This document shows, one piece after another, positions 1 through 39,746 of a stretch of 64,000 nt of DNA; within the stretch, counting starts at the first letter, position 1; every line of letters begins with the position of its first letter. Both the position numbers and the translations under genes were made by a program. The stretch lies in the IMG/VR virus record IMGVR_UViG_3300030339_000005. The stretch is one strand, 5' to 3'. Origin of the DNA: a virus. Its lineage: Duplodnaviria > Heunggongvirae > Uroviricota > Caudoviricetes. The notes below the pieces were generated by a model. That model had not been told where the DNA came from. It did no database searches and saw nothing but the letters and a program-made list of their open reading frames with translations.

Positions 1-1
1 G

Positions 2-577
2 AAAACAGTAGAAGCTCAAGGTTATAACAAAGAAAAAGCACTTGAATCAACAGGTTTAGACGTCCAATTGGACATGTTAAAGAACGCAACACAGGCTTGG
101 AAGAAAGCTGGTTCGCCGATGAATACCAAAGATCTTAATAGATTTATGGCAGAATACATCAAACGTAATAAACTTGTAGGTGCATACTTAGTTGTTGAAG
201 CCTCCTCTGACGACACTCGTCTTCGTCCTTACAGCGTTATCAACGAAACAACAAAAGGAAAACGCAAAACGACTACAACTTATCAAATTAAAGAAGCTGA
301 ATTGAAAGTTAAGTTTACAACTATGATTACTGACGAAAACGAAGAAATCGCAGTACCAGTTGTTGATGTAGTAGCTGTCGGAGCTGTTGAAGCTCGCGCA
401 GACAAGAAAGACACTGCTCTGAAAATTATGAAAGAGCTTATCGAAGTAAACAAAAAAGATTATGTAGTTGAAATTGTTAAGGAAGTTACCGAAGGACAAA
501 AATATGCCGGTTATGGCCAATATACACCTTCGAAATCTGCTAAACTTGGCAAATTCTTATTCTTTGTACAAGAATAA
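2..577 (+). CDS. Conserved hypothetical phage protein, 5'-truncated by the window edge
   Basis: Frame is open from base 2 (KTVEAQGYNKEKALES...) into the 68..577 ORF; ends in TAA; followed by a terminator. Confidence 0.75.
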   Translation, partial: KTVEAQGYNKEKALESTGLDVQLDMLKNATQAWKKAGSPMNTKDLNRFMAEYIKRNKLVGAYLVVEASSDDTRLRPYSVINETTKGKRKTTTTYQIKEAELKVKFTTMITDENEEIAVPVVDVVAVGAVEARADKKDTALKIMKELIEVNKKDYVVEIVKEVTEGQKYAGYGQYTPSKSAKLGKFLFFVQE

Positions 578-602
578 TCATTGATTAACTAACTAATCAC
601 AC

Positions 603-638
603 AGGTCAGCAGTCGCAAGATTGCTGACCTTTTTCTTT
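603..638 (+). terminator. Intrinsic terminator
   Basis: AGGTCAGCAGTC-GCAA-GATTGCTGACCT, a 12-bp stem with a GNRA loop, followed by TTTTCTTT. Confidence 0.9.
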
Positions 639-673
639 AATATTAACGGCGTAACAGCTTATAAAACTAATAC

Positions 674-2011
674 ATGAACACAGACGTAACACACGATGCC
701 ACTATTGATGAGGCTATGCAGGAAAGATCCAGCATAGAAACCTTAAGAGATAGTGCAAACAGAATTACTGGATATAGATTTAGCATTTTAGTACATGATA
801 AACCTACATTGTCTGGAGAGATGACACGTGAGGAAGTTGAGAAAATGTATAGATTGTATTCCCAAGAAGGAGCAAGTCTAACTCAACGTACAATCGTAAG
901 AGAATTTCCGAATTATACATTTCCGCAATTCAAAAAGATCCTTCGAGCTTTTAACATCACCAAATCGTCTGCTCCGTTAGCTCCTCATACTCTAGAGGAA
1001 CTTACAACGGAAGAGGCTGTAGAGATTGCTTTACAGAACAAAGAAAATGATTTCTTTAAGAAATTAGAGCAAGAAAGGGGTAAACGCACCGAACAGCGTT
1101 TAAAAGAAATTACAAAAGAGTATCAAACATTTAAAGAAAAGGCCAATGACTTTGAAGCCTTCTTCGCATCTTTAGACATTACTGCTCATATTGAAGCCAT
1201 TAGGCCTCAAGAAAATGCAGATAAAGTTATTGTGGTATATCTAAGTGATATGCACATTGGTGCTGATGTTAGTAGATATTCAATCTTTGCAAATGAGTAT
1301 AATGCAAAGGAAGTTAAGAAAAGATTAAACAAAGTACTTCAATCTGTTCTACAATTGGCTCAAATGACCGGAGCTACAGATATCATCGTATGTAATATTG
1401 GTGATTCTCTGGATGGATATGATGCCCAAACTACTAGAGGTGGGCATAATTTACCTCAAAATATGGATAATAAAGATCAACTAAAGAACTTTGTTCAACT
1501 AATGGTAGATTTCTTCGGAAGTCTTGCTAATAGTGGATACTTTATGTCGATTAAGTATTACTGTGTAGAAGGTGGTAATCATGACGGAGATTTTGGATAT
1601 GCTGCAAATTTTGCATTGCAATCCTATCTTCGTTCAGCTGGTATCGAAGCTGTGATATTTGACCAGTATATTGACCATTTCAAATATGGTAAACATACTT
1701 TTGTCCTATGTCATGGTAAAGATGCTAAGGATGTCTTTAAAAATATGCCTTTAGTTTTAAGTAAAGGTGTAGAAAATCAAATTGATGAATACTTAGACTA
1801 TCACAGTCTAAAAGGCAATATTCACTTTGTAAAAGGTGATTTGCACCAATCAGCAACCACTTATGGAAAGCGTTTCAGATACAAGTCTGTAGCTTCTTTA
1901 TTTGGCTCAAGTGCTTGGATTCATAAAAACTTTGGTAATACCAAAGCAGCTGTTGATATTGACATTATTGATGGAGATAAGATTTTGGAAACAAGAGTAA
2001 TTCTCAATTGA
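674..2011 (+). CDS. Calcineurin-like metallophosphoesterase with N-terminal helical/coiled-coil region
   Basis: Motifs SDMHIG, GDSLDG, GNHD, CHG and GDLH in canonical order; TGA stop. Confidence 0.85.
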   Translation: MNTDVTHDATIDEAMQERSSIETLRDSANRITGYRFSILVHDKPTLSGEMTREEVEKMYRLYSQEGASLTQRTIVREFPNYTFPQFKKILRAFNITKSSAPLAPHTLEELTTEEAVEIALQNKENDFFKKLEQERGKRTEQRLKEITKEYQTFKEKANDFEAFFASLDITAHIEAIRPQENADKVIVVYLSDMHIGADVSRYSIFANEYNAKEVKKRLNKVLQSVLQLAQMTGATDIIVCNIGDSLDGYDAQTTRGGHNLPQNMDNKDQLKNFVQLMVDFFGSLANSGYFMSIKYYCVEGGNHDGDFGYAANFALQSYLRSAGIEAVIFDQYIDHFKYGKHTFVLCHGKDAKDVFKNMPLVLSKGVENQIDEYLDYHSLKGNIHFVKGDLHQSATTYGKRFRYKSVASLFGSSAWIHKNFGNTKAAVDIDIIDGDKILETRVILN

Positions 2012-2012
2012 T

Positions 2013-2615
2013 ATGACAAGACAACGCATTCACATAGACTTTGATCGAAATGTAGTAACTGGAAAAGAGTTGAAGGAAGCGTTCTTTAGAACAACTCTGG
2101 CTCCTCTAGAAAAAACTATCGAACAAGTCTATGTGTCTAAAGCTCCTAAAGCAACTGATTTCCATGTGGAAATTGCTGCCGAAGGCCATAATGATGGAAC
2201 AGTTTTGTTTTATTATAAAGGAAAGATTGCGTTTATGGGTGAGCAGGAAGTTAAAAGAAATGTTTCAGCAACTCGAACAGAGTTAAGTAAACAGCTTTTG
2301 CAACTTCTTCATTATCATTACCAAAAAGTAGTAGTGCCCCCCAATCCTCCTAAATATAATTATAAAGTCTTTATATTAAACAGTAGTAAATTCTTTGCTT
2401 ATGTTTATTTAGAAGATTTAACAGAAGTTCTTAACCAGCTTGTTCCGTTATTTAAAGAGATTGAGTGTTCTGCTTCTCAGACTTGGAATCAACCAAGATT
2501 ACAAATGGCCATGAAATCTATTATGGATAGCATTCCTATTGTTGTTCATGAGATTACAGATGGCTTTAAGTTGAATGATTGTTATCGAGAAATGTATTTA
2601 CATTGTTTAGATTAA
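2013..2615 (+). CDS. Hypothetical protein
   Basis: 200-aa ORF tightly packed between neighbours; TAA stop. Confidence 0.7.
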   Translation: MTRQRIHIDFDRNVVTGKELKEAFFRTTLAPLEKTIEQVYVSKAPKATDFHVEIAAEGHNDGTVLFYYKGKIAFMGEQEVKRNVSATRTELSKQLLQLLHYHYQKVVVPPNPPKYNYKVFILNSSKFFAYVYLEDLTEVLNQLVPLFKEIECSASQTWNQPRLQMAMKSIMDSIPIVVHEITDGFKLNDCYREMYLHCLD

Positions 2616-2616
2616 T

Positions 2617-2820
2617 ATGAAAGAAGTAATTGTTGCCTTAAATGAAGACATCAAAATCAATTTGCAAAAAATAAAATTATTGCAGAAAGAAATTGATGAT
2701 AATAAAGTTGCTATTGCAGCTTTACAAAGAGTATGTAAACATGCTTACGGATGTACAGGTCATGATAGTCATAAAGACCATTTTACTTGTTTAATCTGTG
2801 GCGATACTTATAGTGCCTAG
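2617..2820 (+). CDS. Small coiled-coil plus Zn-ribbon-like protein
   Basis: CKH...C...HDSHKDHFTCLICG; operon-like spacing. Confidence 0.65.
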   Translation: MKEVIVALNEDIKINLQKIKLLQKEIDDNKVAIAALQRVCKHAYGCTGHDSHKDHFTCLICGDTYSA

Positions 2821-2867
2821 ATATCATACTTATAGATACAGTTGTTAAACGAATTTAATATACCTTA

Positions 2868-3626
2868 ATGGATATTACTGTATCAGAATTGTTGAAAGGA
2901 AAACCGACAATTATCAAAAATAAAGAGTTTTTCCAAACTAAATCATATGTAGAACCATTCTTAAATAAGATGGCAGCTCTTACAAGTGATTTTAGGATTC
3001 AAGTTAAAATGCCAGATCAAATAACTTTTGGTCCAGATGCACAAGACTTGACTTATAATAGAGTGTTGATTCAGGCAGTGATGCCTCAACAACAGATGGT
3101 AGATGGTCATGAAGAAGTAATTGGCTTTCTATATGGAATTGATGTCAAACGTCCTGTTGTAAAAATTTACAGAGGATATTTAAATCAAGCCTGCACTAAT
3201 CTAACTGTATTTAATCCTCAATGGATTCAGATACAAGAGTTAGTTCCAGGTGATCCTATTAATTATTCTGCTATTAAGAATCTTATGGAGCAGACTAGTG
3301 ACTTTCAAACTAGACTTCAGAAAATGAAAGAAACCACAATTGAGCGCGATAAACGTAAACAATATCTAGGGGAATGGGTTGATTACTCTTTGAGAGAGGC
3401 CCAAGATTATGGATTTGGTAAAGTCAAGATCGCTGTAAGTACTCCTATTGATGCCTATAAACAGTTGTTTATTGATCAAGATAGTGAATACTATATTCCT
3501 GAAGGAATTGATCCAACTTTGTTCGATGTTTATAATAGCTTTACTCAAATTGTTACTGACGATAAGAAAGATATTATGAATAAATTTGAGAAAACTATGA
3601 TTATTAATCGTTTACTTAACGTCTAA
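2868..3626 (+). CDS. DUF932-like protein of crAss-like phages
   Basis: Resembles recalled crAss-like DUF932 proteins (GLDV-K-PV-K-Y-G-LN-ACTNL-VF segment); not searched. Confidence 0.55.
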   Translation: MDITVSELLKGKPTIIKNKEFFQTKSYVEPFLNKMAALTSDFRIQVKMPDQITFGPDAQDLTYNRVLIQAVMPQQQMVDGHEEVIGFLYGIDVKRPVVKIYRGYLNQACTNLTVFNPQWIQIQELVPGDPINYSAIKNLMEQTSDFQTRLQKMKETTIERDKRKQYLGEWVDYSLREAQDYGFGKVKIAVSTPIDAYKQLFIDQDSEYYIPEGIDPTLFDVYNSFTQIVTDDKKDIMNKFEKTMIINRLLNV

Positions 3627-3841
3627 TGAAATTTGCGGTAGGATATATTAATTTCTTTGATAATGATCTTATTATTGAAGTCATTGAAGCTAATAACTGG
3701 AAATTAGCATTGTCTAAGCACAGTCATTTAATTAACTCTGGAATTGATTTATTTTTCGGAGATACATTAGAAAATGTAAAAGTGCAGGCTTTTAATTGTG
3801 ATATGATGATTGATGTTGTTTTATTAGATGAAGATTGTTAA
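3626..3841 (+). CDS. Hypothetical protein
   Basis: TAATG-coupled to the upstream gene; 71 aa. Confidence 0.65.
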   Translation: MKFAVGYINFFDNDLIIEVIEANNWKLALSKHSHLINSGIDLFFGDTLENVKVQAFNCDMMIDVVLLDEDC

Positions 3842-4097
3842 AGTTATCTATGATGATAAAACGAGCTTTATTCTAGACATTGTTAATAATCTAGACGTAA
3901 AAGTATTGATTGATAGTTTTAACATTGATGATTATCGACAAAAGAAAAAAGCTCTCCCAATTATGACAAGAAATGGAACTACTCAAGTTCCTCTTGTCGT
4001 ATTTGCGGATGAAAACTTAGATGAATATGCTGCTATTTGGAGCGAAACAAAGCCAGATTGGGAATTAGAAATAAAGAAAATTTTAGAAAATGAATAA
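3828..4097 (+). CDS. Hypothetical protein, possible glutaredoxin-like fold lacking CxxC
   Basis: TTQVPLVVF resembles the glutaredoxin T-V-P cis-Pro loop. Confidence 0.5.
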   Translation: MKIVKVIYDDKTSFILDIVNNLDVKVLIDSFNIDDYRQKKKALPIMTRNGTTQVPLVVFADENLDEYAAIWSETKPDWELEIKKILENE

Positions 4098-4260
4098 ATA
4101 TCGAATTTATTTAAACAATAATGATCTCACAGATAGTGTTGATATATCAGCAGATTATCCTCAGGTTATGGGAAACATAATCATCTTTTATATAGGAGAT
4201 GAAGTTGTAGCAAGTATACCACCAGCCTTAGTTTTTATTAGATTACCTAAAGAAGACTAA
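4090..4260 (+). CDS. Small hypothetical protein (56 aa, absent from ORF track)
   Basis: Hand translation MNKYRIYLNNNDLTDSVDISADYPQVMGNIIIFYIGDEVVASIPPALVFIRLPKED*; fills the gap exactly. Confidence 0.65.
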   Translation: MNKYRIYLNNNDLTDSVDISADYPQVMGNIIIFYIGDEVVASIPPALVFIRLPKED

Positions 4261-4261
4261 T

Positions 4262-4483
4262 ATGATGATGTTTTTTACAGAAGATGATATTGTTTCCTTT
4301 GGAAATTATATGATGTCTTCATTAAGAGAAAGAAAAATCAGAGAGGCTGTAGAGCTTTCTGAAGACGAAGATCAAATCCAAGCTAGATTGAGATCAGTGA
4401 GTGATGCCGATCTAGGTAATTGGGCTTATCTAATGAATCAAGCTGTTGCCCAAGGTACAGCAAATAATCGTTCTGAAGAATAA
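4262..4483 (+). CDS. Hypothetical protein
   Basis: FTEDDIVSFGNYMMS...DADLGNW; TAATG-coupled to the dUTPase gene. Confidence 0.7.
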   Translation: MMMFFTEDDIVSFGNYMMSSLRERKIREAVELSEDEDQIQARLRSVSDADLGNWAYLMNQAVAQGTANNRSEE

Positions 4484-4977
4484 TGAAAGTAGATGTTGTA
4501 AATCAAGGAATTAATGAACTTCCAAAATATGCTAAAGCTGGTGATTCTGGAATGGATTTAAGAGCTAATTTTTCAAATGGTTTGAATGAAGATTTAATGT
4601 ATGGCTGTGCTTTTGATACTGAAAGAGAAGTTTTGATTATGTTTAGTGGCGGTCGATGTGTAGTTTCAACTGGATTATACACAGCATTTCCACCTGGATA
4701 TGAAATTCAAGTTAGGGGAAGAAGTGGATTAGCTATCAAGTATGGTATTCAAGTGTTAAATGCTCCTGGCACAATTGATTCTTCTTATAGAGGAGAATTG
4801 GGAGTAATCTTAATGAACTCGGGTAGTGAACCTTTTGAAATTGTACATGGAGATAGAATTGCCCAAGCTATACTTGCGAAAGTATGCTTAGTAGAATGGA
4901 ATCAACTGGCAAGTCTAGAAGATCTTTCTGCTTCAGATAGAGGAAAGACTGGATTTGGTGATAGTGGTATTAAGTAA
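4483..4977 (+). CDS. dut: Trimeric dUTPase
   Basis: Motifs GMDLRA, RGRSGLA, GTIDSSYRGE, GDRIAQ and RGKTGFGDSG. Confidence 0.97.
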   Translation: MKVDVVNQGINELPKYAKAGDSGMDLRANFSNGLNEDLMYGCAFDTEREVLIMFSGGRCVVSTGLYTAFPPGYEIQVRGRSGLAIKYGIQVLNAPGTIDSSYRGELGVILMNSGSEPFEIVHGDRIAQAILAKVCLVEWNQLASLEDLSASDRGKTGFGDSGIK

Positions 4978-6149
4978 TGATAATTGAAACAATATATCTA
5001 GTTACAAGAAATGCTCGAGACAAAGTTCAAGTAGTTATTGCTGAATTAGAACAAATTGGAAACAACTTTGTGATTCACAGAACTACTGGACAATATGAAG
5101 GAAAAATGACTGATCAACCTGAACTTGTTATTGAGAAAGGTAAAGCTAAACGATCAGTCATACAACAAGCAGAACTTGAATTTAATAGTATTGTTAGTAA
5201 GTATCAAGACAAAGGTTACAAAAGATTAGCCTCTCTTACTAATAAGAAGTTTGAAGATATTTTAGCAAGTGAGATGGACGCTTTAGTTCCTACTATAAAA
5301 TCTGACTCATCAGGAAATCTAAAACCAATGTTAGCTAAGGATTACAATAAATGTCAGAATTCAGTTCTAGACAAAAGAATGTATTGTAGTCGTAAGTTAA
5401 ATGGTGTAAGATGTATGATGAAATGGGGTGGCAATAATGTTGTAACCGTTTCCAGAGGTGGAAAGAATTACGACAATGCTTGTCAACAACTAACTCCACA
5501 ATTAAGCGAGTATTTACGTTCACATCCAGATGTAATTCTAGATGGCGAGCTTTATCATCATGGTCATTATCTACAAGAATTATCTGGTATAGCCCGAAAG
5601 GAAACTTGGGACGAAAGATGTGAAATTCTTGAGTATTGGATTTATGATATAGCTGATGATAAAATGGAATTCGTAGATAGACTTGGCATTCTTAATGAAT
5701 TGAGAGTTGAAACTTTTAAAGATCTCCAAAAAATTAAAGTTTTAGAACATTATCCAACTGAATGTTGGGATGATGTCAAACGGCTCCACGATAAGTGGGT
5801 AGGAGAAGGTTATGAGGGCGCAGTAGCTCGAAAACCGAACAAACCATATGAGTTTGGAAAGAGAAGTTCTACAATGATTAAGATTAAAGCTTATCAAGAT
5901 GCTGAGTTTACAATTATTGATTATCGAGATGGTTTAAGAGATGAAGATTTTTGCTTCATTTGTGAAACTGAAGATGGCAAAGCATTTGCTGCTAAGCCTA
6001 TAGGTGATCGAGAATTAAAGGCTGAGTATATGAACAACATAGATAACATAATTGGAAAGAAAGGGACCATAAAATACTTCGAGATTTCTCGAGAGGGTAT
6101 TCCAATGCAACCAATCTTTCAATCAGTACGTTACGAGGAGGATCTATAA
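4977..6149 (+). CDS. lig: ATP-dependent DNA ligase
   Basis: PMLAK, SRKLNGVRC (motif I KxDG-like), LDGELY, GYEGAVAR, KRS...KIK and an OB-fold C-terminus ending PIFQSVR. Confidence 0.93.
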   Translation: MIIETIYLVTRNARDKVQVVIAELEQIGNNFVIHRTTGQYEGKMTDQPELVIEKGKAKRSVIQQAELEFNSIVSKYQDKGYKRLASLTNKKFEDILASEMDALVPTIKSDSSGNLKPMLAKDYNKCQNSVLDKRMYCSRKLNGVRCMMKWGGNNVVTVSRGGKNYDNACQQLTPQLSEYLRSHPDVILDGELYHHGHYLQELSGIARKETWDERCEILEYWIYDIADDKMEFVDRLGILNELRVETFKDLQKIKVLEHYPTECWDDVKRLHDKWVGEGYEGAVARKPNKPYEFGKRSSTMIKIKAYQDAEFTIIDYRDGLRDEDFCFICETEDGKAFAAKPIGDRELKAEYMNNIDNIIGKKGTIKYFEISREGIPMQPIFQSVRYEEDL

Positions 6150-6442
6150 TGAGCGAAAATTTAAAAATAATGGTTGAATCCAATGAACATGTTATCATTG
6201 ATTTTTCAGCCGAATGGTGTGCTCCATGTAAGATAGTGGGGCCAATTCTTGATCAAATTGATGAAGAAAATCCAGATATATCTGTATTTAAAGTAGATAT
6301 TGATGATGATCCTACAGGATTAACATCTGAATTTGCTGTTCGAAATATTCCTACCCTTTTATATTTTAAGGGTGGACAAGTGATTGATAGAACAGCAGGT
6401 TCTCTACCAAAAACAATGATTTTAAGTAAGTTTAATAAGTAA
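6149..6442 (+). CDS. trxA: Thioredoxin
   Basis: DFSAEWCAPCK active site; VRNIPT cis-Pro loop. Confidence 0.95.
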   Translation: MSENLKIMVESNEHVIIDFSAEWCAPCKIVGPILDQIDEENPDISVFKVDIDDDPTGLTSEFAVRNIPTLLYFKGGQVIDRTAGSLPKTMILSKFNK

Positions 6443-6446
6443 AGCT

Positions 6447-6584
6447 ATGACAATAATTAAGCCATGCACATGTGAACATAAATTTCAAGACGCAATTTAT
6501 GGAAAAGGTAAGAGAGTTCATAACGAAAGTTTTGACGGTAAGCGTTCTAAGTGTACTGTTTGCAAATCTGTAAAGAATAAGTAA
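6447..6584 (+). CDS. Small Cys-rich protein (45 aa, absent from ORF track)
   Basis: Hand translation MTIIKPCTCEHKFQDAIYGKGKRVHNESFDGKRSKCTVCKSVKNK*. Confidence 0.7.
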   Translation: MTIIKPCTCEHKFQDAIYGKGKRVHNESFDGKRSKCTVCKSVKNK

Positions 6585-6585
6585 T

Positions 6586-7092
6586 ATGTATTTTAAAGGA
6601 ACAATAATTATAACAGATCCTTGTTATTTAGACATTGAAAATGTTGAAGATAAATTAGAAGGTTTGTTTGAAGAAACTGGATATGGTGATTGGAGTTGCA
6701 CAACTTTTAAAGATACTCCTGAAGCCACTGCACTTTATAATGATTATAGTAGAGAATATCTTACGTTCTTTACTGCTTATAATTTTGGGCCACAAAGTCC
6801 AGAAGAAAAAGAAGTAATGCTTAACGAGTATATGGAAAAACATCAAGCCTTTATTCATTCGGAAGCTGTTCTTGGACAATTCTGTGCTGATGGAGGTATG
6901 GTTTGCGTTGCTCTTTTAGACGATGTCATGAAATTAAATCCTGAGTTTTCTTATGATGAAGAAAGCCATTGGATAACGGTTATTCCTAACTTTGAGGGAG
7001 ATGTTGTTATTGATTGGGATGATTCTACAGATTCAAGCAAAGTTATTGGCAAAGGAAATATTAATTTTTATACTGCTCAGACAGGTTTATAA
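6586..7092 (+). CDS. Hypothetical phage protein
   Basis: GTIIITDPCY...GQFCADGGMVCV...GKGNINFYT; 168 aa. Confidence 0.75.
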   Translation: MYFKGTIIITDPCYLDIENVEDKLEGLFEETGYGDWSCTTFKDTPEATALYNDYSREYLTFFTAYNFGPQSPEEKEVMLNEYMEKHQAFIHSEAVLGQFCADGGMVCVALLDDVMKLNPEFSYDEESHWITVIPNFEGDVVIDWDDSTDSSKVIGKGNINFYTAQTGL

Positions 7093-7349
7093 TGGAAGAC
7101 ACAGAAATTATAGTAGCTGAAGAAACTCCAGTTACTGAAACACATGATTTGGAGTATCCCGAGATTAGTCTCGAGATGCTTCAATCTCGTGCGGCTCGGA
7201 AAGCATTTGGTATTAGATTTAAACCATATGTTCGTGAGACGCCAAAGATACAAAGAAATGACTTATGTTACTGTGGCAGCGGCAAAAAGTATAAACATTG
7301 CCACATGGAGCTTGATAAATTAGAAGAAAATGCCGAATATTTGCATTAA
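7092..7349 (+). CDS. SEC-C motif zinc-binding protein
   Basis: RNDLCYCGSGKKYKHCH matches the SEC-C consensus RNDxCxCGSGKKYKxCH. Confidence 0.88.
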   Translation: MEDTEIIVAEETPVTETHDLEYPEISLEMLQSRAARKAFGIRFKPYVRETPKIQRNDLCYCGSGKKYKHCHMELDKLEENAEYLH

Positions 7350-7791
7350 CACTATCAACATCACATATTACGAAGTTGAGGAGAAAGAACTAAAAAAGAT
7401 TTCCAGAGCTATTCGTGATAAGATTGATGAAAGATTTCTTATTTATAAAATGTGGGGCAAAGACGATACTCCTTATCATCTTGATGAACCTGTAATTATT
7501 ACTAATTATGAGTTTGGAAGTGATTGGGTAGCTCCTTTAGAATTCTTAGATCAGCTTTGTATAGATCACAATGTAGACATTTGTGGTGTTGCATATGAAT
7601 TTGAGGATGGATACGTCGAATCATTTGAACTACAAAATCGAATGGAAGACGGAACACTAGAAACCCATTGGGTAAGTATGGAAGCAGAAGACAGAGAAAA
7701 TACAACTACATTACCACTTAGTGGTGATGAGTCTGTATTGGATGAAGATATTAACTTTGAATTACCACCAGATGAACAGATTTTGGAATAA
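7330..7791 (+). CDS. Acidic hypothetical protein
   Basis: 153-aa ORF overlapping its neighbours in operon fashion. Confidence 0.65.
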   Translation: MPNICINTINITYYEVEEKELKKISRAIRDKIDERFLIYKMWGKDDTPYHLDEPVIITNYEFGSDWVAPLEFLDQLCIDHNVDICGVAYEFEDGYVESFELQNRMEDGTLETHWVSMEAEDRENTTTLPLSGDESVLDEDINFELPPDEQILE

Positions 7792-8281
7792 ATTTTCGGA
7801 ACTTATTTATAACATACGTACTTATATTAAAAATATAATCAAATGGTCACCCATTCTTTGGAAAGACCAAGACTGGGATCATGATTATATTTTTAATACT
7901 TTAAGCTTTAAGATTGAAAATACCTCAAAGTATATTGCAGAGCATAAAAGGTACGTAGGTTATGAAAGAGATGTGGAAATCATGAATACTTGCGTTAGAT
8001 TACTAAAGCTTGTTAAAGAAGAGGGTTATATGGTAGAGTATCATGACTACTATATAACAGAACTTTCTATAAAAGATCATAAATTAGAATCTAAAGTATT
8101 ACAAAATAATTTAGATTTATATTTTGATAAATATCGTCACGAAGTTAGAATGTTTAAGAAAGTTGAACATCGTGAAGATGAATCCTATATAGCCCTAATG
8201 ATAGGCTACCGCGTTCATGAAAAAGCTAGAAGAATTTTATTTAAATTACTTGAAAGAAATATTGAACGATGGTGGGATTAA
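7772..8281 (+). CDS. Hypothetical phage protein
   Basis: Start taken at MNRFW; KWSPILWKDQDWDHDY...IERWWD. Trp codons checked are TGG. Confidence 0.7.
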   Translation: MNRFWNKFSELIYNIRTYIKNIIKWSPILWKDQDWDHDYIFNTLSFKIENTSKYIAEHKRYVGYERDVEIMNTCVRLLKLVKEEGYMVEYHDYYITELSIKDHKLESKVLQNNLDLYFDKYRHEVRMFKKVEHREDESYIALMIGYRVHEKARRILFKLLERNIERWWD

Positions 8282-9342
8282 AGAAAACAATAAGTGCAGA
8301 AATTGTAGCTGATTCTATTAACTCTATGGGAGATAGAATCACTTCATTTCTGTTAACTTATCCACGAATTATACATGCAGAACTAATGACTCATAGAGTT
8401 TTTAGTAGAAATTCTGCATCATCAAGGGCTATACCATTTGAGAAAATGGTTGAATCTGTCAGAACAGATCCTTTTATTCCTATTGCTTGGCAAGTTGCTC
8501 ACAAAGGAATGCAAGGAACAAAATATTTAACTAAATCAGCACATGTTGATTTTCGACGTAGTCAATGGTTAGTAGCTAGGGATTCTGCAATTAAACATGC
8601 TGAAGAATTAAACTCAACTATGGGAGTTAGATATTCTATGGATGAAGATCCGCATCAATTAGCTGATACTTCAGTTACAAAACAACTTTGTAATCGTCTT
8701 TTAGAACCTTTCATGTGGCATACTGTTCTTATAACAGCTACTGAATTTGAAGGATTCTTTGAACTTCGTTGTCCTAAATATTTTGGGCAATATAAAAGTT
8801 GGAAAGATGCAGTATCTTCAGGAGCTACACTTGAAACTCCCTTTGAGTTTCGAATGAACGATTCACAAGCAGAAATTCATATTCAAGCTCTTGCAGAAGC
8901 AATGTGGGATGCGAGAAATGAATCTATTCCTATTAAGCTAAAAGATGGAGATTGGCATATTCCTTTTGGGGATAGAATTACTCTACCTCCGACCATTCCA
9001 ATTGATGCAGGATATACTCTAGAGCAGGGTGTTGCAATTCGAAAAGTTAAAATAGCAACAGCACGATGTGCTAGATTATCCTATATGACATTTGATGGAG
9101 AAATTAATTATGTCAAAGACATTGGTTTACATGATACTTTGCTAGCTAGTCATCACATGAGTCCGTTTGAACACTGTGCTCGTGCAATGAATTCTGATGA
9201 GTATATTCAATTTGATAGAGCCTCTCCACGCATAATCAATGGAAAAATGAATAAGTTTTTTGTTGATATTGAACAGGCTTGGTGTAATAATTTTAGGGGA
9301 TTTATTCCTTATAGATGGTTTATTGAAAATGGAACCAGTTAA
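8269..9342 (+). CDS. thyX: FAD-dependent thymidylate synthase (ThyX/Thy1)
   Basis: ELMTHRVFSRNSASSRAIP signature; ARCARLSY; HMSPFEH. Confidence 0.9.
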   Translation: MVGLKKTISAEIVADSINSMGDRITSFLLTYPRIIHAELMTHRVFSRNSASSRAIPFEKMVESVRTDPFIPIAWQVAHKGMQGTKYLTKSAHVDFRRSQWLVARDSAIKHAEELNSTMGVRYSMDEDPHQLADTSVTKQLCNRLLEPFMWHTVLITATEFEGFFELRCPKYFGQYKSWKDAVSSGATLETPFEFRMNDSQAEIHIQALAEAMWDARNESIPIKLKDGDWHIPFGDRITLPPTIPIDAGYTLEQGVAIRKVKIATARCARLSYMTFDGEINYVKDIGLHDTLLASHHMSPFEHCARAMNSDEYIQFDRASPRIINGKMNKFFVDIEQAWCNNFRGFIPYRWFIENGTS

Positions 9343-9856
9343 TTTACAAGAGTTGAAATCAATTAACGAGTTATTTGATTTCTTTGTCCACCATCACTAT
9401 AAATGTAGTAAATGTAGTTCAGCAGTCTTTTACTCTATGGGAGAAGTGCAAAGTGAATTTGATGTTGATTATATAGATTGCCCATTCTGTGGACAATCTC
9501 AAGCAATTGATATTGATGAGTTTTTAATTAAAGGGCGAAAGCAATCTTTAATTACTAAGAAGAAACTTTTGCTTGCAGAAGATTGGGTCAGGGTTGTTCA
9601 TGGAGGACGAGGTGATTATATTGAACTTGATAGAGAACAAATACTCTCTAATCTTGAGAATAAGTTTACTAAAAAATCCGACCAGGAGCTTTTAAATGGA
9701 GAGCATTTTTATGAATGGTTATATCCATCTGGAGATCCTGATTTAAAAATCTATAGACAGCTCAAAACAGTGACCTATGCTGATTATAAGATAGGAAAAT
9801 ACTATATCAGTGTTGACGAATTTCCAGATTTTAAAGATCCTGAAAAATTATTTTAA
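9329..9856 (+). CDS. Hypothetical protein with N-terminal Zn ribbon
   Basis: CSKC...CPFC followed by HGGRGDYIE...KIYRQLKTVTYADYKIG. Confidence 0.65.
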   Translation: MEPVNLQELKSINELFDFFVHHHYKCSKCSSAVFYSMGEVQSEFDVDYIDCPFCGQSQAIDIDEFLIKGRKQSLITKKKLLLAEDWVRVVHGGRGDYIELDREQILSNLENKFTKKSDQELLNGEHFYEWLYPSGDPDLKIYRQLKTVTYADYKIGKYYISVDEFPDFKDPEKLF

Positions 9857-9857
9857 A

Positions 9858-10160
9858 ATGAATAAAGAAGAATTTGTTAAGTTATTAGCAACCTACGAGA
9901 AATGTTTAACTAACATTCATGAGTTGTATAATGTCGGTGTTGATGTTACTGAGTCTAAATATGCCCTCCCAATTGAACCTATAGTGGACATTATTCTAGG
10001 TTCGATCTATGACGAAAATGGTGTAGATTGGATTAATTGGTTTATTTATGAAACCAATTTTGGTAAACGAGCTGAAATGGAAGCTCATGACGAATATGGT
10101 GCTCGTATTTGTCAAACAGTTGAAGCTTTGTATGATTTTGTAGAGCAATATAAAAAGTAA
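9858..10160 (+). CDS. Hypothetical protein
   Basis: DWINWFIYETNFG motif; TAATG-coupled to the next gene. Confidence 0.7.
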   Translation: MNKEEFVKLLATYEKCLTNIHELYNVGVDVTESKYALPIEPIVDIILGSIYDENGVDWINWFIYETNFGKRAEMEAHDEYGARICQTVEALYDFVEQYKK

Positions 10161-10576
10161 TGAAGAAACTTATTTGTACAAATGATGGTCGCAATTACAC
10201 TTGTGACCACGACACATTAAATCCTTTAGTTTCTTGTGGGGCTTGCTCATATCTTAAACAATATGAGGAACAAGCTCCACAGATAGATGGGGGAGCATTA
10301 AGATATAACGCTGGTAAGCGTAAATGGGATTTAGTACACTATAAATCTCTTGAGCCGATGATTGAAGTTTTGGAGTTTGGTGCTCTAAAGTATGCTCCAA
10401 GAAATTGGCAAAAGTCAATGAATACAAGAGAGATTTTGAATTCAATGCAAAGACATCTTGCAGCTTTAATGGATGGTGAAGAAGTAGATGCTGATTCTGA
10501 AATTTCCCATATGGGACATATTCAGGCAAACGCTATGTTTTATAATTATCACCATGAAAGGAAAGGCGAAGTTTAA
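10160..10576 (+). CDS. DUF5664 dATP/dGTP diphosphohydrolase-like protein
   Basis: RYNAGKRKWDL...EVLEFGALKYAPRNWQK...SMQRHL...GEEVDADS...HMGHIQANAMF. Confidence 0.85.
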   Translation: MKKLICTNDGRNYTCDHDTLNPLVSCGACSYLKQYEEQAPQIDGGALRYNAGKRKWDLVHYKSLEPMIEVLEFGALKYAPRNWQKSMNTREILNSMQRHLAALMDGEEVDADSEISHMGHIQANAMFYNYHHERKGEV

Positions 10577-10739
10577 GCTTGTTGCAGGCGATCCTGTTTT
10601 ATTATGTTCTAAATGTAGTAAAATTATAAAGTACGCAAAGTACTTTTCAGAAGAAGACTGGCAAGCGTATAAAGGAGAGATTAAGCTCTCTCCACAGATT
10701 TGTGATGAATGTTTAGAAAAAGAACTAGATTATGAGTGA
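10554..10739 (+). CDS. Small Zn-binding hypothetical protein
   Basis: LLCSKCSKIIK...CDEC; ends TGA TAA. Confidence 0.65.
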   Translation: MKGKAKFKLVAGDPVLLCSKCSKIIKYAKYFSEEDWQAYKGEIKLSPQICDECLEKELDYE

Positions 10740-10977
10740 TAAGCACAAAGAATCAATATTACCAATCGACTGGTTTGGTTGGGGTGGAAGATTTCCGCAA
10801 TTTTATTTTTACTCAGTAACTTTTACTGAAGACTTTGGTGTTTTCAAGAAAGGTGATGAGTGTACAGATTTAAAAGTGAATTATGAAGAAGGAGTCGTTG
10901 AAGAAATGCTAGATGGTGTTTTAGGGCGAACTCAAAAATTCAGATGTTTTCCAATTCCGGATGATAAAATTGACTAA
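10732..10977 (+). CDS. Hypothetical protein
   Basis: 81 aa, TAA stop; last gene of the + strand block. Confidence 0.65.
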   Translation: MSDKHKESILPIDWFGWGGRFPQFYFYSVTFTEDFGVFKKGDECTDLKVNYEEGVVEEMLDGVLGRTQKFRCFPIPDDKID

Positions 10978-10984
10978 AAATTTT

Positions 10985-11206
10985 AATGTAGATACGCTTT
11001 AGAATCCCTGAGTGGCATTTTCTATGCTGTAGTGGAGACTTATATATTTCTTATCTTGAAAGTCCAAGGTTGGTCTTAAAATGAGTCAAGTGTATTTTAC
11101 ATTAAAGTAACAGTTTGGTCATGGCAAATTCTTATTGCGAAGGAATTTCAATAAGGATTTCGTAGTCATTGGGACTGCCGTTTATAGAAATGTCTGTAAA
11201 CAATTT
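10985..11206 (+). ncRNA. Candidate structured non-coding RNA or leader
   Basis: No convincing ORF. Consecutive hairpins: GCAT/ATGC, GACTT/AAGTC, AGTGTA/TACATT, ATTCTTATTG/CAATAAGGAT, GTAGTC/GACTGC, GTTTATAGA/TCTGTAAAC. Several contain G-U pairs that work only on the + strand. Confidence 0.5.
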
Positions 11207-11248
11207 AGGGGAACTACGATGTGAATCGTGGTTCCCCTTATTTTTTTC
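11207..11248 (+). terminator. Intrinsic terminator closing the early block and RNA candidate
   Basis: AGGGGAACTACGAT-GTGA-ATCGTGGTTCCCCT, 14 bp with a GNRA loop, followed by a T7 tract. Confidence 0.9.
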
Positions 11249-11281
11249 ATTCATTATATAAGTTATTTCCAATAATACTAT

Positions 11282-11289
11282 TACTTTTG
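11282..11289 (+). promoter_or_regulatory. Possible Bacteroidota sigma70-type -7 element
   Basis: TACTTTTG fits TAnnTTTG, 26 nt upstream of ATG 11316; no clear -33 TTTG. Confidence 0.4.
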
Positions 11290-11315
11290 TAAGTAACTGT
11301 AAAATCACTATAACT

Positions 11316-12002
11316 ATGGATGACTCAAAATTCGCTACTTTTAAACCTATAATAAATCAAGTATCTCAAGATAGAAATGAAATGGCTGCATATTATGCAG
11401 CTAATAATCTAACTCCTGATAATGATTATTTATCTAGATATCTTTCTGGAATTACGCCTACTATACCTGCGGTTCAGACAGCACAGAAAATATCTCCTGT
11501 GCCTCAAGTTCAAAGTATTAGAGACTTGCTTAATCAAGCAATAGCAAAACGAGTTGCTGTAAATCCACCAATTGCAGCTAATGTAGAAAATGTTGCTTTA
11601 GATGATAGACCTAAAGAAGCTATGAATTTCTTTATAAGAAAAGGTCTTAAAAAAGAATGAGCTGCTGGAATTGCTGGAAATTTATATCATGAATCTGGAT
11701 TTGATACTACTGTTCCTGGAGATCATGGATCTGCTTATGGGTTAGCTCAATGAAGAGGTGCTCGTAGAGAAGGTTTAAATCAATTTGCTAAAGTACATAA
11801 TACTGATCCCGCTGCTTTTGGAACTCAATTAGAATATATCTATCATGAATTACAGAATGGTGAAAAAGATGCATTTGCTGCACTTCAAAGTACAAATAAT
11901 GTAAGAGATGCTGCAAGAGCCTTTGCCTTAAAATTTGAACGGCCTAAAGTTTATAATACTGAAAGAGCTGATACAGCCGAACTTTATTATAAAAATTGAT
12001 AA
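11316..12002 (+). CDS. Phage tail lysozyme (Phage_lysozyme2-like) with in-frame TGA=Trp
   Basis: Reading through TGA 11658 and TGA 11751 gives KE-W-AAGIAGNLYHESG...YGLAQ-W-RGARR...QLEYIYHEL...FALKFERP; ends TGA TAA. Confidence 0.9.
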
Positions 12003-12048
12003 AAATAAAATAGCCCGACCACTTAATTGTGATCGGGCTATTTTTTTT
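12001..12048. terminator. Bidirectional terminator between convergent lysozyme and late operon
   Basis: AAAATAGCCCGACCAC-TTAATT-GTGATCGGGCTATTTT with an A tract on one side and a T tract on the other. Confidence 0.85.
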
Positions 12049-15000: not shown

Positions 15001-16726
15001 TAAGATTTAGTTTTAAATCATCATACATTTCATTGAGTACAGCAAACACTTTAAAATATTCTGCATCTAAATATGTATATTTATTATCATATTTACTTAA
15101 GAAATTATTAGCAGTAATAGCTATAGGAATGATTTGTCCAGAAGAAGTATTACGTAATAGAATAATTCCTAAACTATCTAACTCTGAAACTGATTCAATA
15201 ACTGCATATTGTCCATTAAGGTATGGTTGCAGTGCATGTCTTGCTTGTTTTTGTTGATTTTCACTTGATAATTCTAATTTATTAGCGTTTCCAGCATTAA
15301 TAGCTACTGTAATTGCACTCTTTAATTGAATGACATTTCTATTATCCTTATTATCAAGAAAGGATAAGAATTGGTCTGCAATGTCTCCAGCTTTTTTAAC
15401 TTTTTCTGCTTCAGTAAAGCTCGTAAAATTCTTAATTGCAATACGATTTGATTTAGCTGTAATTGGACTGTCTTCATCCAATGGATTTTCAGTAACAAAT
15501 TGATCTAAATCAGCTTTGTTAACAGTAAAGTAAGCTTGCTTTAGGATATCCTCAACTAATTTTTCTCTATGATATTCTCTACGAGTTGTTCTAATTTTAT
15601 ACTTTGGTAATAAAGAGACTAATGTATTAATTAATCGAAGTTCTCTATCTGGATTAGTTTCTAATTTAATAGAGTCTGGAATAAATTTATTTGCAATCTT
15701 AAACAACATACCATCATTAAAAATTAATCCAGCTTTTGGATCACCATTTCTAACTTGTTCATTACCTTTAGTCAATGCTTTAGGATCTAATTTTCCTCCT
15801 ACTAAGCTTCCAGTTTCAATTGGAATAATAGTTAAATCAGAGTGTGAAACATCAGTATATTGTCCTAATAAAGCCCTTTCAAAAGCTAATTGGTAATCAG
15901 ATTGTAATTTCTTAGCGCTGTCTCACTTTTCAAAACCTCTTTTAGAGCTTTTAATTGAATAAATATGAGGAACTCCTTCGGAAGTTACTGTAACAAAATC
16001 AATATGTCCTGAGATATGAAAAGGAGGCTCTCCTTCAGTTGTTAATAAAATATCAAACATTGGAGTTCCTCTAGTAAATATTACTTTAGAAATTTCGTCA
16101 ACAATACTATTTAATTTTGTATTTAAGTCTGTTGCTTGTTCAGCTTCAATTAAGTTCTCTGCAACAGCTTCTTTCACTGCAGTAGCTATTGTAAGTTTTG
16201 ATTGAGCTCGTGGGTCATTACTTTCAAAGTCATCAGCAATATTTCCAACTGCATTCTTAATTGCAATAATTAGTTTATTAGTTTTTTCTTCAGCTTCCAT
16301 TACTTCAAGAATATCTTTTTCATATTCTATAGATTCAGACAAAGTTGGATCTGCCTTAATTTCTGCTAAAGTCATATCTTTTAAACTATCTTCTGTATGT
16401 CCTGATTCAACCAATTTATTTACAACTGATTGATACACACGTTTTGGTGCATCATATTCAGGACTTAATCTAGAAGCTGATATACCCATAGGTTTGAGGG
16501 TTTCCTCATTTTGTTGACTAATAAATTTAGTCAATGGAATTCTTTCAAGCTTACCTATCTCATCTCTACGAACTATTTGCTTATGTATTGATTCTAAAGT
16601 AGAATCTTCAGCATTAGAACTATAGATATTAGAGTTTGCTAATGGAGTTTTTGATTTATAAAACTCCATTAGCACTCTTGCTAAAGATAGTGAATCCTGG
16701 TCGTTTACACTATATGTACATGCCAT
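12047..16726 (-). CDS. Giant cargo/ejection-type protein (about 1559 aa, code 4) with a degenerate PD-(D/E)xK-like domain
   Basis: Fragments ending at 15923, 14237, 13625, 12758 and 12167 share one frame and end in TGA; hand-read gaps are open; TAA at 12047; GHIDFVTV...PHIYSIK. Confidence 0.8.
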
Positions 16727-16733
16727 ATTATTA

Positions 16734-19700
16734 CTATTTACAATTAATTTTTATTTTCTTTTCTTTAATAGATTTTTGTAGCCAATCTCTAAAGTTAGCG
16801 TCAAAAAATATTAAATTAGCATTCTTAACATCTTTGCTAATATCTCTTTTATTAAAACCTGTAATGTCTTTTACAGATGCAGAAAGTAATCCTTCTAAAT
16901 CTTCAATGTTTAAATCATTAAATGATTCAGCACTTAAATCTTCAGACACTTCTGCTAAACCAGCCACAATACCATCAAATAATTGATTTTTAAAATCATC
17001 TTCAATATCAGCCAATCCATTGTCTAATAACTTTTGAGATAAATATGTTACTAAGTCTTCTTCAATAGTAAAGGCATCTAAGGCCTTTTCTTTAAGTTTT
17101 CCAACTCGATGCCCTTCAATAATTTTATCATATAAAGTAGGTTTGGTATATCTTAAAGACGTTAAAAATAGATGTAAGAATTCATGAACAACATCATCTT
17201 CATTTGCTTTACTATTATACATATTAATTACAATAGTAGGTTTTCCATCTACATCGGGCTCAATTCAAGCCTTTTTATTTTTATATTTCCTATATTGTTC
17301 ATCATTTGTTGTATCTCAATTTACTCTTGAGACTTCAATATCAAATAAATTTGCAAACTTATAACCTACATAGGCAGCTAATTCATCACGATCAGTTAGT
17401 GTTTTTCTGCTTGGTTTAATATCAAGATTAGCATCCAAATCTTTTTGATTTTCAGAAGTAAATGGAAGATACATTGCTTTAAATACTTTATCATTAAATG
17501 CTTTATCAATATTTAAAGATCGGCGAATTGTAATAATTTTTCCATCGTTATTAATTCCATTATATTCTAAAGTCATTATACCATTGTCTGTATTTACTAC
17601 TTTAAACATTTTATTACTAAAGTCAATATTAGCACTTCCTGCAAAAGATTTAGCAAAACAAAAATAAGTATTTGTCTTAATATAATCTCTAAATTTATTA
17701 TAATTTGGTCTAAGAATTCCACCTTTATCCTGCAAGATATACTCTTTTAAAGATTTGTTATATCTTTTAATATAACCATTATCCTTTTGTAAAAGAAATA
17801 ATTGTTTACCACGAACATTTTGAAGTTTATTTAAGTCCTTAATTAGCTCTTCAGTTACATCACTAAATTGATCTGCAATCGCATCCATACGAGGCCCTCA
17901 TCTAACACTGCCAACATCATAATTGCCAGATTTTAATAGAGTGGGACTTATATTATCATTTACAAGTTTTGGTATAACATAACGAGCAGGTACTAATTTA
18001 AAGCCATTAGCTTTATCAAGCATAAATCTATTTGTATCAATTTCATCAGCACTATTAGCTGATACTAATGTAAAATTATTAAAATCAGCCATTGTTCTTC
18101 CATCTTCTGGAGCAATATCTCTTTTAGTAATAAATAAATTAGCTTTAGAAAAATCAGCAAATTCATAACTATGTCCAACGTCTACTCCATTTTTAATTTG
18201 AAGACGAACTGCATAGTTATCCTTTTTACTAATGATTTTATATAGAGTCCCTGAATTTTCTTCTTCTCCTGGAATTACAAAGTAATCTCCGTCTTGAGCT
18301 GCTTCTGCAGTTAAGAAATAGGAAAAATTAGCATCACGAACTGATTGTTCTTTTAGATAGATATTGTCATATTCTTTAGCTACATCTTGTAACTCTTTAA
18401 TTGTTAACTCCGGTAACTTAGGAGTAAACATTTCTACAATACTTTCTCTTGGTTGTGCAATAATTTTCTTAAGTGTACGAGTTTTATCTGCATCTCTTGT
18501 TTTAACAATAATATAAACTTTATCATCAGATACAGCAGCAACTTGATTATAGAAAACGGAATCAGGATGGCCTTTGACTCTAGTTACGATTTTAACAAAA
18601 TCTTTGGGTTTAATTGGTAGATAATTCTTTCCTACTTTTTGAACGCGATCTAATGTTTCTAATAAATCACGTTTTTTACTTCATTCTTTATCTGTAAAGC
18701 TATCACTCAGTTCACTATTCAAAATAGTAAATGATTTAATATTTCTAAAGTCTACAGGAAAAGAACGACGTTTTTCAGTCTTAGAATTTAATCTAATTTC
18801 TCCAGGGAATATATCTCGAACAACACCTCAAGAATTTTCAATTGTTTTATTTTTCTTTTTATCGTAATAATCATAGCTAACAGTTGACCCACGTTTTACT
18901 AAAGTTTTAACAATATCCTCAGGTAATTTCTCCTGATCTTTAACTGTTACAATGAATTCTCCAGGAAATTGTTGCTCTAATGTTAAGGCATCTTGATGAC
19001 TATCTATATCCTCAATTGGATTTAAATTATTTAATTTTTTAAAATAGAATAAACTATCAGGAGTTAATATAATAGATTGATCTTTAGCTAATTCAGTTAT
19101 GATACCATTAGCAGACCAAAATCCAGAATCTATTCTAATTCCACCCTTTTCTCTAACAATACTTGTGGGAATCAAATTCATAGTTCAATTTGAATCTGAC
19201 CTTTTTCCTTTTTTAACTGGGCGACCATCATTCAAAGGAATGCTAATAATATCTTGATATAGTTTTACATTAGATAATGCTCAATCTTGTAGACTATTAA
19301 TATCATCTTTAGTTATTTCTTCAGCTTTATCAAAATGATAATTAATTACATTCTTATGTATAAAATTTTGAATGGATTCTTTACGTTGTTTCTTAAGAAA
19401 TTCCCTATTTTCTTGATCCTCTTTATTAAACTCTTCTAGAACTTGAGCCATTCGACTTTTAGTCCCACTTCCATACTTATCAGGACTGATATGTTTAAAT
19501 AAAGTTTGTAGTACTTTTATATGTTGATTTTTACGCTTCTGTAATTTAGTAACAAATGTTTCTTCGTCAGTTTCTTCGGGTTCATAATTAACTAATAAAT
19601 CATCAGCAACTAAGTTAATAATTTTATCAATTGCAGATTTAGTCCCAGTTTTATGAGATAACATCTTAAAGAACTCTGGATCCATATATTCACCCTCTTC

Positions 19701-39500: not shown

Positions 39501-39746
39501 ATTTTCATCTGTCATCTCTTTATAATGTGATGCTGCTTTATTAAAAGCCAAATCAAATCCTGATGAGTCAAACTGACCATCAGGTGTTTTAAACTTATCC
39601 TGCACGAATTTACTTTGCAAATAATCCTCTTTCTTATAAAAAGAGGTATTATCTGGCGTAAGATCTGCAGACATAAGATCATAAGTTGTTGATTCTGGGT
39701 TATTTAATGAGGCAACAAATATATCATTAGGTTTTGTTATTTCCAT
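30585..39746 (-). CDS. Giant cargo/ejection-type protein (about 3053 aa, code 4) with hydrophobic segments and an SF1 helicase domain
   Basis: Thirteen fragments in one frame; GNAGTGKT (34488-34511), IIFIDE, AGDTLQ, QGREFD and YTYLSRA; TAA at 30585. Confidence 0.85.

Follow-up and report, generated by a model that had tools for sequence, protein, structure and literature searches.

The locus raises the question of what fills the stretch of about 270 nt between the last early gene and the lysozyme gene of this phage, which an earlier note had proposed to be a new non-coding RNA or a switch tied to the early-to-late or code transition. The window, meaning the whole stretch of 64,000 nucleotides that was analysed, comprises bases 59425-123424 of a 178,320-bp virus record. 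From position 12047 onwards, the - strand is filled by giant ORFs (the longest 3312 aa) containing numerous in-frame TGA codons (translation table 4), and under the same table in-frame TGA is absent from nearly all + strand ORFs of 2-10977. The dGTP/dATP pyrophosphohydrolase encoded at 10160-10576 has its best matches in a Maribacter phage and in the crAss-like Cellulophaga phage phi14:2. Furthermore, 27 tRNAs were predicted in the genome with ARAGORN, including a UCA (TGA-reading) and a CUA (TAG-reading) tRNA. Given the TGA-filled late ORFs, the pyrophosphohydrolase matches and the UCA tRNA, the source is therefore a large crAss-like phage in whose late genes TGA encodes tryptophan. These two tRNA genes lie at 24197-24271 and 161242-161337 of the genome (G000:C1), the CUA gene within the tRNA array.

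The element sits between the last early ORF and the lysozyme gene (Table 1), at the boundary between standard-code early genes and a TGA-recoded lysozyme, as expected from the early/late junction that had been claimed for it. It had also been described as the largest ORF-free interval, which is true for the + strand block, where the other apparent gaps are occupied by tightly packed ORFs of 56-73 aa. Among 5.8 billion proteins, the sole match of the 81-aa ORF upstream was itself. The cumulative GC-skew maximum is close to the element, and the genes change from the + to the - strand near 12 kb. At this meeting point, the 16-bp hairpin scored as a - strand terminator may also stop + strand transcription, judging by the A and T runs on its two sides.

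Table 1. Features of the element and of its immediate surroundings (positions in the window)
Feature	Position	Strand	Details
Last early ORF	10732-10977	+	81 aa, orphan; stop codon immediately adjoins the element
Conserved 5' boundary motif (AAAATTTTAAnnTAGA...)	10978-11004	+	Local hairpin possible, 10981-10989 with 10996-11004
Domain 1 of the minimum-energy fold	10980-11108	+	20-bp closing helix, 10980-10999 with 11088-11108
Domain 2, long bulged hairpin	11111-11177	+	About 27 bp; GGAA tetraloop at 11142-11145
Hairpin before the terminator	11180-11201	+	GTTTATAGA, loop AATG, TCTGTAAAC; z -5.6
Intrinsic terminator	11207-11247	+	14-bp stem with 7 G-C pairs, GUGA loop, then TTATTTTTTT
Putative Bacteroidota-type -7 promoter box (TAnnTTTG) for the lysozyme	11282-11289	+	TACTTTTG; outside the RNA
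Lysozyme (PF18013), downstream neighbour	11316-12002	+	Three in-frame TGA codons
16-bp hairpin flanked by A and T runs	12007-12044		Meeting point of lysozyme and convergent late gene; scored as - strand terminator

No credible ORF was found in 10978-11248 under table 11, table 4 or table 4 with TAG read as glutamine, apart from frames that merely read the terminator, and a conserved short ORF that would explain the region was likewise not observed under any of the three codes. The earlier statement that the region is not a recognisable tRNA or tmRNA is in line with ARAGORN, which placed none of the 27 tRNAs in the window and predicted no tmRNA. A covariance-model search against Rfam 15 gave no match at the gathering score in the whole window. 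The best sub-threshold matches, BSnc120 in the window (23.5 bits; cut-off 114) and BTnc231 in the relative L004 described below (26.7 bits; cut-off 80.4), both rest on the terminator. No match to the element was obtained by blastn among GenBank phages, and neither the IMG/VR single-protein scans with both flanking proteins nor the IMG/VR DNA-pattern scans with the terminator (exact and degenerate) and the 5' motif found any. Within its own genome the element is single-copy, and its 5' motif occurs once. Other contigs that carry the 81-aa ORF or a lysozyme variant contain an identical element and are hence uninformative.

Folding of the + strand (10978-11255) yielded -89.4 kcal/mol, compared with -57.0 +/- 4.6 kcal/mol for dinucleotide-shuffled sequences (z -7.05; none of 200 shuffles was as good), so the fold is far better than that of shuffled sequence. 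The - strand of the element reaches -54.2 kcal/mol (z -3.8), much of which comes from the terminator palindrome. The same asymmetry relative to shuffles was observed for 10978-11110 (z -4.6 on the + strand, -1.7 on the - strand) and for 11109-11178 (-3.2 and -1.5), and 11176-11204 has a z of -5.6 on the + strand. All hairpins listed in the earlier note are present in the sequence: ATTCTTATTG (11128-11137) with CAATAAGGAT (11149-11158), GTAGTC (11162-11167) with GACTGC (11172-11177), AGTGTA (11089-11094) with TACATT (11098-11103), and GTTTATAGA (11180-11188) with TCTGTAAAC (11193-11201). The 14-bp terminator stem described there (11207-11220 with 11225-11238, GUGA loop, then TTATTTTTTT) was also confirmed. 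Each of these hairpins and the terminator contain, as had been pointed out, exactly one G-U pair that becomes an A-C mismatch on the opposite strand.

In the minimum-energy fold, the closing helix of domain 1 encloses hairpins at 11005-11036 and 11037-11087; the alternative is a set of four local hairpins. The terminator has a folding energy of -24.6 kcal/mol (z -6.4) and the features expected of an intrinsic terminator, with a GC-rich stem, a loop of 4 nt within the usual 3-8 nt and a U-rich tract directly after it. A scan of the whole 178-kb genome on both strands in 3564 segments of 200 nt ranked two segments covering 11077-11376 as 7th and 19th, in the top 0.5%. The element region is thus among the most structured of the genome and is not unique. 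Relative to their composition, window positions 16477-16676 (both strands), 39477-39676 (- strand) and 7777-7976 (+ strand) fold as well or better, as do genome positions 19201-19500 (+ strand, just upstream of the tRNA array) and 171701-171900 (+ strand).

Sampling around this phage is sparse, with one lysozyme relative at 55% identity (the L004 type, represented by a contig of 13.7 kb) and the next at only 37-38%. All relatives share the layout of the locus, consisting of a last early ORF, a strong intrinsic terminator, a TAnnTTTG box, the lysozyme and convergent tail genes. The terminator was identified in L004, L005, L006, L012 and L015 and is kept at this position in every relative. In all five lineages compared (window, L004, L005, L006 and L015), the box is located 25-35 nt before the lysozyme ATG, in L004 at about 1721-1728. 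TAnnTTTG is the established Bacteroidota -7 promoter consensus, and its conservation points to a Bacteroidota host and to transcription of the + strand, late-type lysozyme by the host polymerase. Under table 11, the lysozyme of L006-L010 (215 aa) translates without TGA, and those of the window, L004 and L005 need TGA to be read as tryptophan; the recoding of the lysozyme therefore differs among relatives with the same locus layout.

The interval before the terminator differs markedly among these phages. The gap between ORF and terminator is 18 nt in L005, about 40 nt in the L006 type and, in L015 and L045, about 200 nt of unrelated AT-rich spacer. Only the L004 lineage has a comparable element at the same place, of about 267 nt compared with about 270 nt in the window, and on this set of relatives the element is lineage-specific. 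In L004, 390 nt lack an ORF, and their fold has a z of -5.7 (+ strand) and -2.6 (- strand); for the L004 element itself, + strand values span -5.1 to -5.7, likewise against -2.6 for the - strand. The 81-aa ORF is missing from the L004 lineage and 57 nt of poorly conserved spacer take its place. With base-pair span limited to 60 nt, the window and L004 RNAs each form seven local hairpins plus the terminator.

Similarity between the two lineages is concentrated at the two ends of the element. In segment-wise local alignments against shuffles, the terminator together with the hairpin that precedes it reached z 15, the 5' motif z 3.6 (common to L004 1422-1448; 3 of 500 shuffles were as good), the promoter region z 3.3 and the centre z 2.7. 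A covariance model of window 11109-11250 (R2) matched L004 1570-1686 with 41 bits (E 1.7e-10). This match aligns the terminator, the GUUU...AAAC hairpin, which in L004 reads GTTTGC/GCAAAC, and a shortened domain 2 stem. The base of the domain 2 stem thereby aligns with a shorter L004 hairpin in an alignment that is fitted to the model, and sequence-level similarity between domain 2 and L004 was not found by local alignment against shuffles. In an RNAalifold analysis of the window and four L004-type strains, both the 5' hairpin and the terminator were retained, with compensatory exchanges; between the lineages, the 5' helix (columns 8-32) differs by a single exchange of A-U to G-C and by three wobble changes.

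For the remainder, no homology was detected. The model of the 5' and central part (R1) scored 11 bits in L004 (E 2.3, not significant), the corresponding model in the reverse direction (R3) had no match at the window locus, and the central 130-150 nt show no detectable homology in this comparison of only two diverged lineages. A single conserved 260-nt fold was therefore rejected as a description of the element, since only the 5' hairpin and the 3' part of about 115 nt are alignable. The 20-bp closing helix was likewise rejected as a shared feature. It has no counterpart in L004, where helices are only 8-12 bp long and the corresponding duplex reaches -7.6 kcal/mol at best, compared with -18.8 kcal/mol in the window.

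Constraint within a lineage was measured on six further L004-type contigs that were obtained, with variation counted among five clean strains. In the element (L004 1419-1685), 10 of 267 sites are variable (3.7%), compared with 117 of 923 third codon positions of the flanking genes (12.7%; p = 8e-6), which shows purifying selection on the element. At first and second codon positions of the flanking genes, variation is 5.3%, and the two genes that adjoin the element vary at 21-23% of their third positions. The centre alone (L004 1449-1570) has 4 variable sites in 122 (p = 0.0013). The 57 nt from the upstream stop codon to the 5' motif vary at 10.5% (p = 0.04 against the element), and conservation in the L004 strains begins exactly at the 5' motif. 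The conserved unit therefore extends from the shared 5' motif to the terminator, with a lineage-specific centre that is constrained within its lineage. About 70% of the sites of the element appear to be constrained. Six substitutions fall in predicted stems. Four of them keep pairing through G-U (C-G to U-G, G-C to G-U, U-A to U-G and U-G to U-A). The other two break pairs, the first at the closure of a loop and the second in a weak stem that is absent from the centroid fold. The pairing-preserving substitutions suggest a + strand RNA and are not significant alone. Together, the fold statistics, the strand asymmetry and the purifying selection in the sister lineage support the earlier proposal of selection on a + strand RNA.

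These data bear directly on whether the region functions as RNA at all. Hairpins acting at the DNA level, such as a protein-binding palindrome or a recombination or replication-terminus site, or a fast-evolving spacer that folds by accident beside a terminator, would account for the centre not being conserved between lineages, and the AT palindrome in the 5' motif (TTAAAATTTTAA in L004) could bind a protein; the proximity of the GC-skew maximum and of the strand switch near 12 kb would also fit such a site. We nevertheless consider this explanation unlikely, because the folding asymmetry between strands is strong in both lineages, purifying selection covers the whole element including its centre, and the G-U-compatible substitutions would be mismatches on the other strand and in cruciforms derived from the duplex.

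A short hydrophobic protein, such as a holin-like partner of the lysozyme, was also considered, since a same-register open frame with a Phe-rich tail crosses the terminator next to the lysozyme in both lineages (46 aa at window 11135-11275; 58 aa at L004 1562-1738), the TGA of the terminator loop being read as tryptophan. However, the tail results from translating the U tract and the 3' arm of the terminator, and upstream of it the two peptides share almost nothing even though the nucleotides align. Both ORFs start with TTG instead of ATG, three of the five strain substitutions in the L004 frame fall at second codon positions, the frame passes through the putative lysozyme promoter, and L005 and L006 have the terminator without such a frame. 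A protein of this kind is extremely improbable, and we judge the open frame to be, in all likelihood, a by-product of the terminator sequence and not a gene.

The regulatory proposal in the earlier note was that TCGTAGT (11160-11166), located in domain 2, pairs with ACTACGA (11213-11219) in the 5' arm of the terminator. Read-through into the lysozyme would then be staged or depend on a bound factor, tying lysis to the early-to-late or code transition. The complementarity over 7 nt does exist, and the element directly precedes a lysis-type gene, a placement comparable to that of the lambda 6S RNA and tR' before S and R. When the 7-bp helix is forced, however, the fold reaches only -65.0 kcal/mol, 24 kcal/mol worse than -89.4, and the predicted nascent transcript does not adopt the helix. 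A complementary 7-mer is expected by chance in 7% of shuffled upstream sequences (p about 0.07). In L004, too, one 7-mer could pair with the terminator arm, but it is a different one at chance level (7-8%), located at a non-homologous place and directed at another part of the arm, and L004 has no equivalent of TCGTAGT at the homologous place. A mutually exclusive helix of comparable stability that is conserved in relatives, as expected of an attenuator or riboswitch platform, was not found in the element. Nor does the lysozyme seem to depend on read-through, as its putative promoter box follows the terminator in all five lineages.

The proposed tie to the code transition fares no better: L005, which is recoded, lacks the element, and the unrecoded L006-type phages keep the same terminator. 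A conditional terminator is thus very unlikely, and a terminator/anti-terminator or code switch was rejected as the main reading on the grounds of energy, chance level, non-conservation, the putative lysozyme promoter and L005. Hence, of the two possibilities raised at the outset, a structured RNA outside the known families stands, while the switch is disfavoured by its energy, its chance-level complementarity and its non-conservation. By comparison with the relatives, the element does not belong to the recoding machinery. In an antisense search of the genome, no complementarity of the element to the suppressor tRNA genes was observed.

We therefore interpret the element as a genuine structured RNA of about 270 nt, encoded on the + strand and kept by selection, which forms the terminated 3' end of the early (replication-module) transcription unit, and assign this reading a probability of about one half. 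It draws on the analogy with the early gene class of phi14:2. In that phage, the complete replication module belongs to a single early rightward class, which an injected virion polymerase transcribes, middle and late genes are transcribed by the host polymerase from sigma-70-like promoters, and the early promoters of crAss-like phages have no known motif (bioRxiv 10.1101/2020.03.07.982082). In the proposed mechanism, the polymerase would leave the last early ORF and the transcript would fold into the 5' hairpin and a variable set of four or five further hairpins, followed by the conserved GUUU...AAAC hairpin and then by the 14-bp GC-rich hairpin with its U7 tract. This last hairpin would act as a constitutive transcription stop that keeps early transcription out of the recoded lysozyme gene and the convergent late genes, and the lysozyme would be transcribed from its own host-type promoter. 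The stacked upstream helices would shield the 3' end and probably leave a discrete, stable 3' RNA fragment. The variation of 10.5% in the 57 nt upstream of the element in L004 makes a conserved promoter immediately ahead of it less likely and favours co-transcription with the early genes.

Several observations speak against this interpretation. The distant relatives of the L005 and L006 types have the terminator alone, and the extra 220 nt are therefore not needed for termination; furthermore, the window and L004 lineages do not share the central part. As early promoters of crAss-like phages lack a recognised motif, a promoter belonging to the element itself may also exist. The apparent constraint on about 70% of the sites exceeds what a protective stack of hairpins needs, which hints at a specific partner, and the strength of this constraint suggests an additional specific role involving a protein or an RNA. 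For one candidate protein partner, the Ro60 (TROVE) protein of a Y RNA/Ro module, no PF05731 match was found in the phage genome, and the controls responded.

The main rival of the 3'-end interpretation is that the element constitutes a free-standing sRNA gene of about 270 nt, read from a phage-specific promoter of its own located at the 5' motif or immediately ahead of it, whose product would act in trans by binding a protein or by base-pairing with phage or host mRNAs. A constraint on the whole element that matches the one at first and second codon positions would suit such a gene, as would the sharp 5' boundary common to both lineages and a terminator at the end, as in bacterial sRNA genes; in phi14:2, non-coding RNAs accumulate and persist (bioRxiv 10.1101/2020.03.07.982082). 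On the other hand, no host-type TAnnTTTG box was found upstream of the element, and the 57 nt preceding it are not conserved in the L004 strains. This explanation is possible but rather doubtful.

A specific target for a trans-acting RNA was suggested by two segments that flank domain 2. Positions 11102-11115 and 11182-11193 have exact direct matches of 14 and 12 nt, 3 nt apart, at genome (G000:C1) 137785-137813 (L076 2786-2814), inside a giant late ORF of more than 1999 aa on the - strand. As the matches are direct and the ORF is on the - strand, the RNA is complementary to that mRNA, with domain 2 looped out. A split match of this length occurred in only 4 of 650 control segments of the genome, which counts in favour of a free-standing sRNA, while the predicted fold hides both pairing segments within helices, which counts against it. 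No wider homology was observed at the 137785-137813 locus, and Pfam was silent on the target ORF. The element acting as a riboregulator that pairs with this mRNA, forms a three-way junction and blocks translation or guides cleavage is quite unlikely; if true, a stable RNA made early would time or throttle a late recoded gene. The search for other antisense targets in the phage genome returned only 15-mers at E about 0.04.

Considered as the terminated 3' end of the early unit, the element can be compared with several known systems. Lambda 6S RNA with tR', which is subject to Q antitermination, is a short terminated RNA immediately upstream of the lysis genes. The element shares this placement and differs in that the putative lysozyme promoter lies after the terminator; neither a Q-like factor nor a conserved alternative pairing was found for it. 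The put RNA hairpins of HK022 act on the polymerase just downstream of promoters, whereas the element is located at the end of an operon. Stable 3' ends in the early transcripts of T7 are set by long and imperfect RNase III processing hairpins between the genes. With 20 bp in its closing helix and 27 bp in domain 2, the element would likewise offer duplexes long enough for RNase III, but the L004 version has only helices of 8-12 bp, and long duplexes are therefore not the conserved feature. As in Rho-independent terminators and sRNAs derived from 3'UTRs, the structured RNA at the operon's 3' end is closed by a GC-rich hairpin with a U tract. The element differs from such terminator-bearing 3'-end RNAs by about 220 nt of extra selected structure before the terminator, and its stable fragment is putative. 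Among candidate structured RNAs from IMG/VR, 1241 of 8495 potentially have a Rho-independent terminator (Fremin et al. 2023, PMC10690425), and the element belongs to this general kind of terminator-capped structured phage RNA.

A further parallel comes from the early-strand lncRNAs of phi14:2, located in the g004-g005 and g005-g006 intergenic regions, which are abundant and persist late (Drobysheva et al., bioRxiv 10.1101/2020.03.07.982082). Like the element, they are non-coding and lie on the early rightward strand of the replication module of a crAss-like phage. They are found at the start of the early module, whereas the element is at its end, and their regions, of about 700 nt each, fold no better than shuffles when taken whole (z -0.3 and -1.2). 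No significant match of R1 or R2 was obtained in positions 1-7000 of phi14:2 (NC_021806), and its early module finishes with a gap of just 60 nt, without a counterpart of the element. As a separate observation, ARAGORN predicted a tmRNA at 4031-4500 on the + strand of phi14:2 (L078, NC_021806), in the g005-g006 lncRNA region, with the tag peptide GSSVQKLAMVA*. Rfam tmRNA models remained below threshold for it, and the record has no RNA feature annotation in 1-7000.

The crAss-like phages are among the most abundant phages known. To our knowledge, their non-coding RNAs are almost unstudied, the work on phi14:2 being the only experimental report. In this context, the element represents a lineage-restricted structured RNA and not a new principle. 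In a phage with a recoded stop codon, it adds a clearly bounded RNA that is under selection, is closed by a terminator and, compared with the phi14:2 lncRNAs, lies at the other end of the early module.
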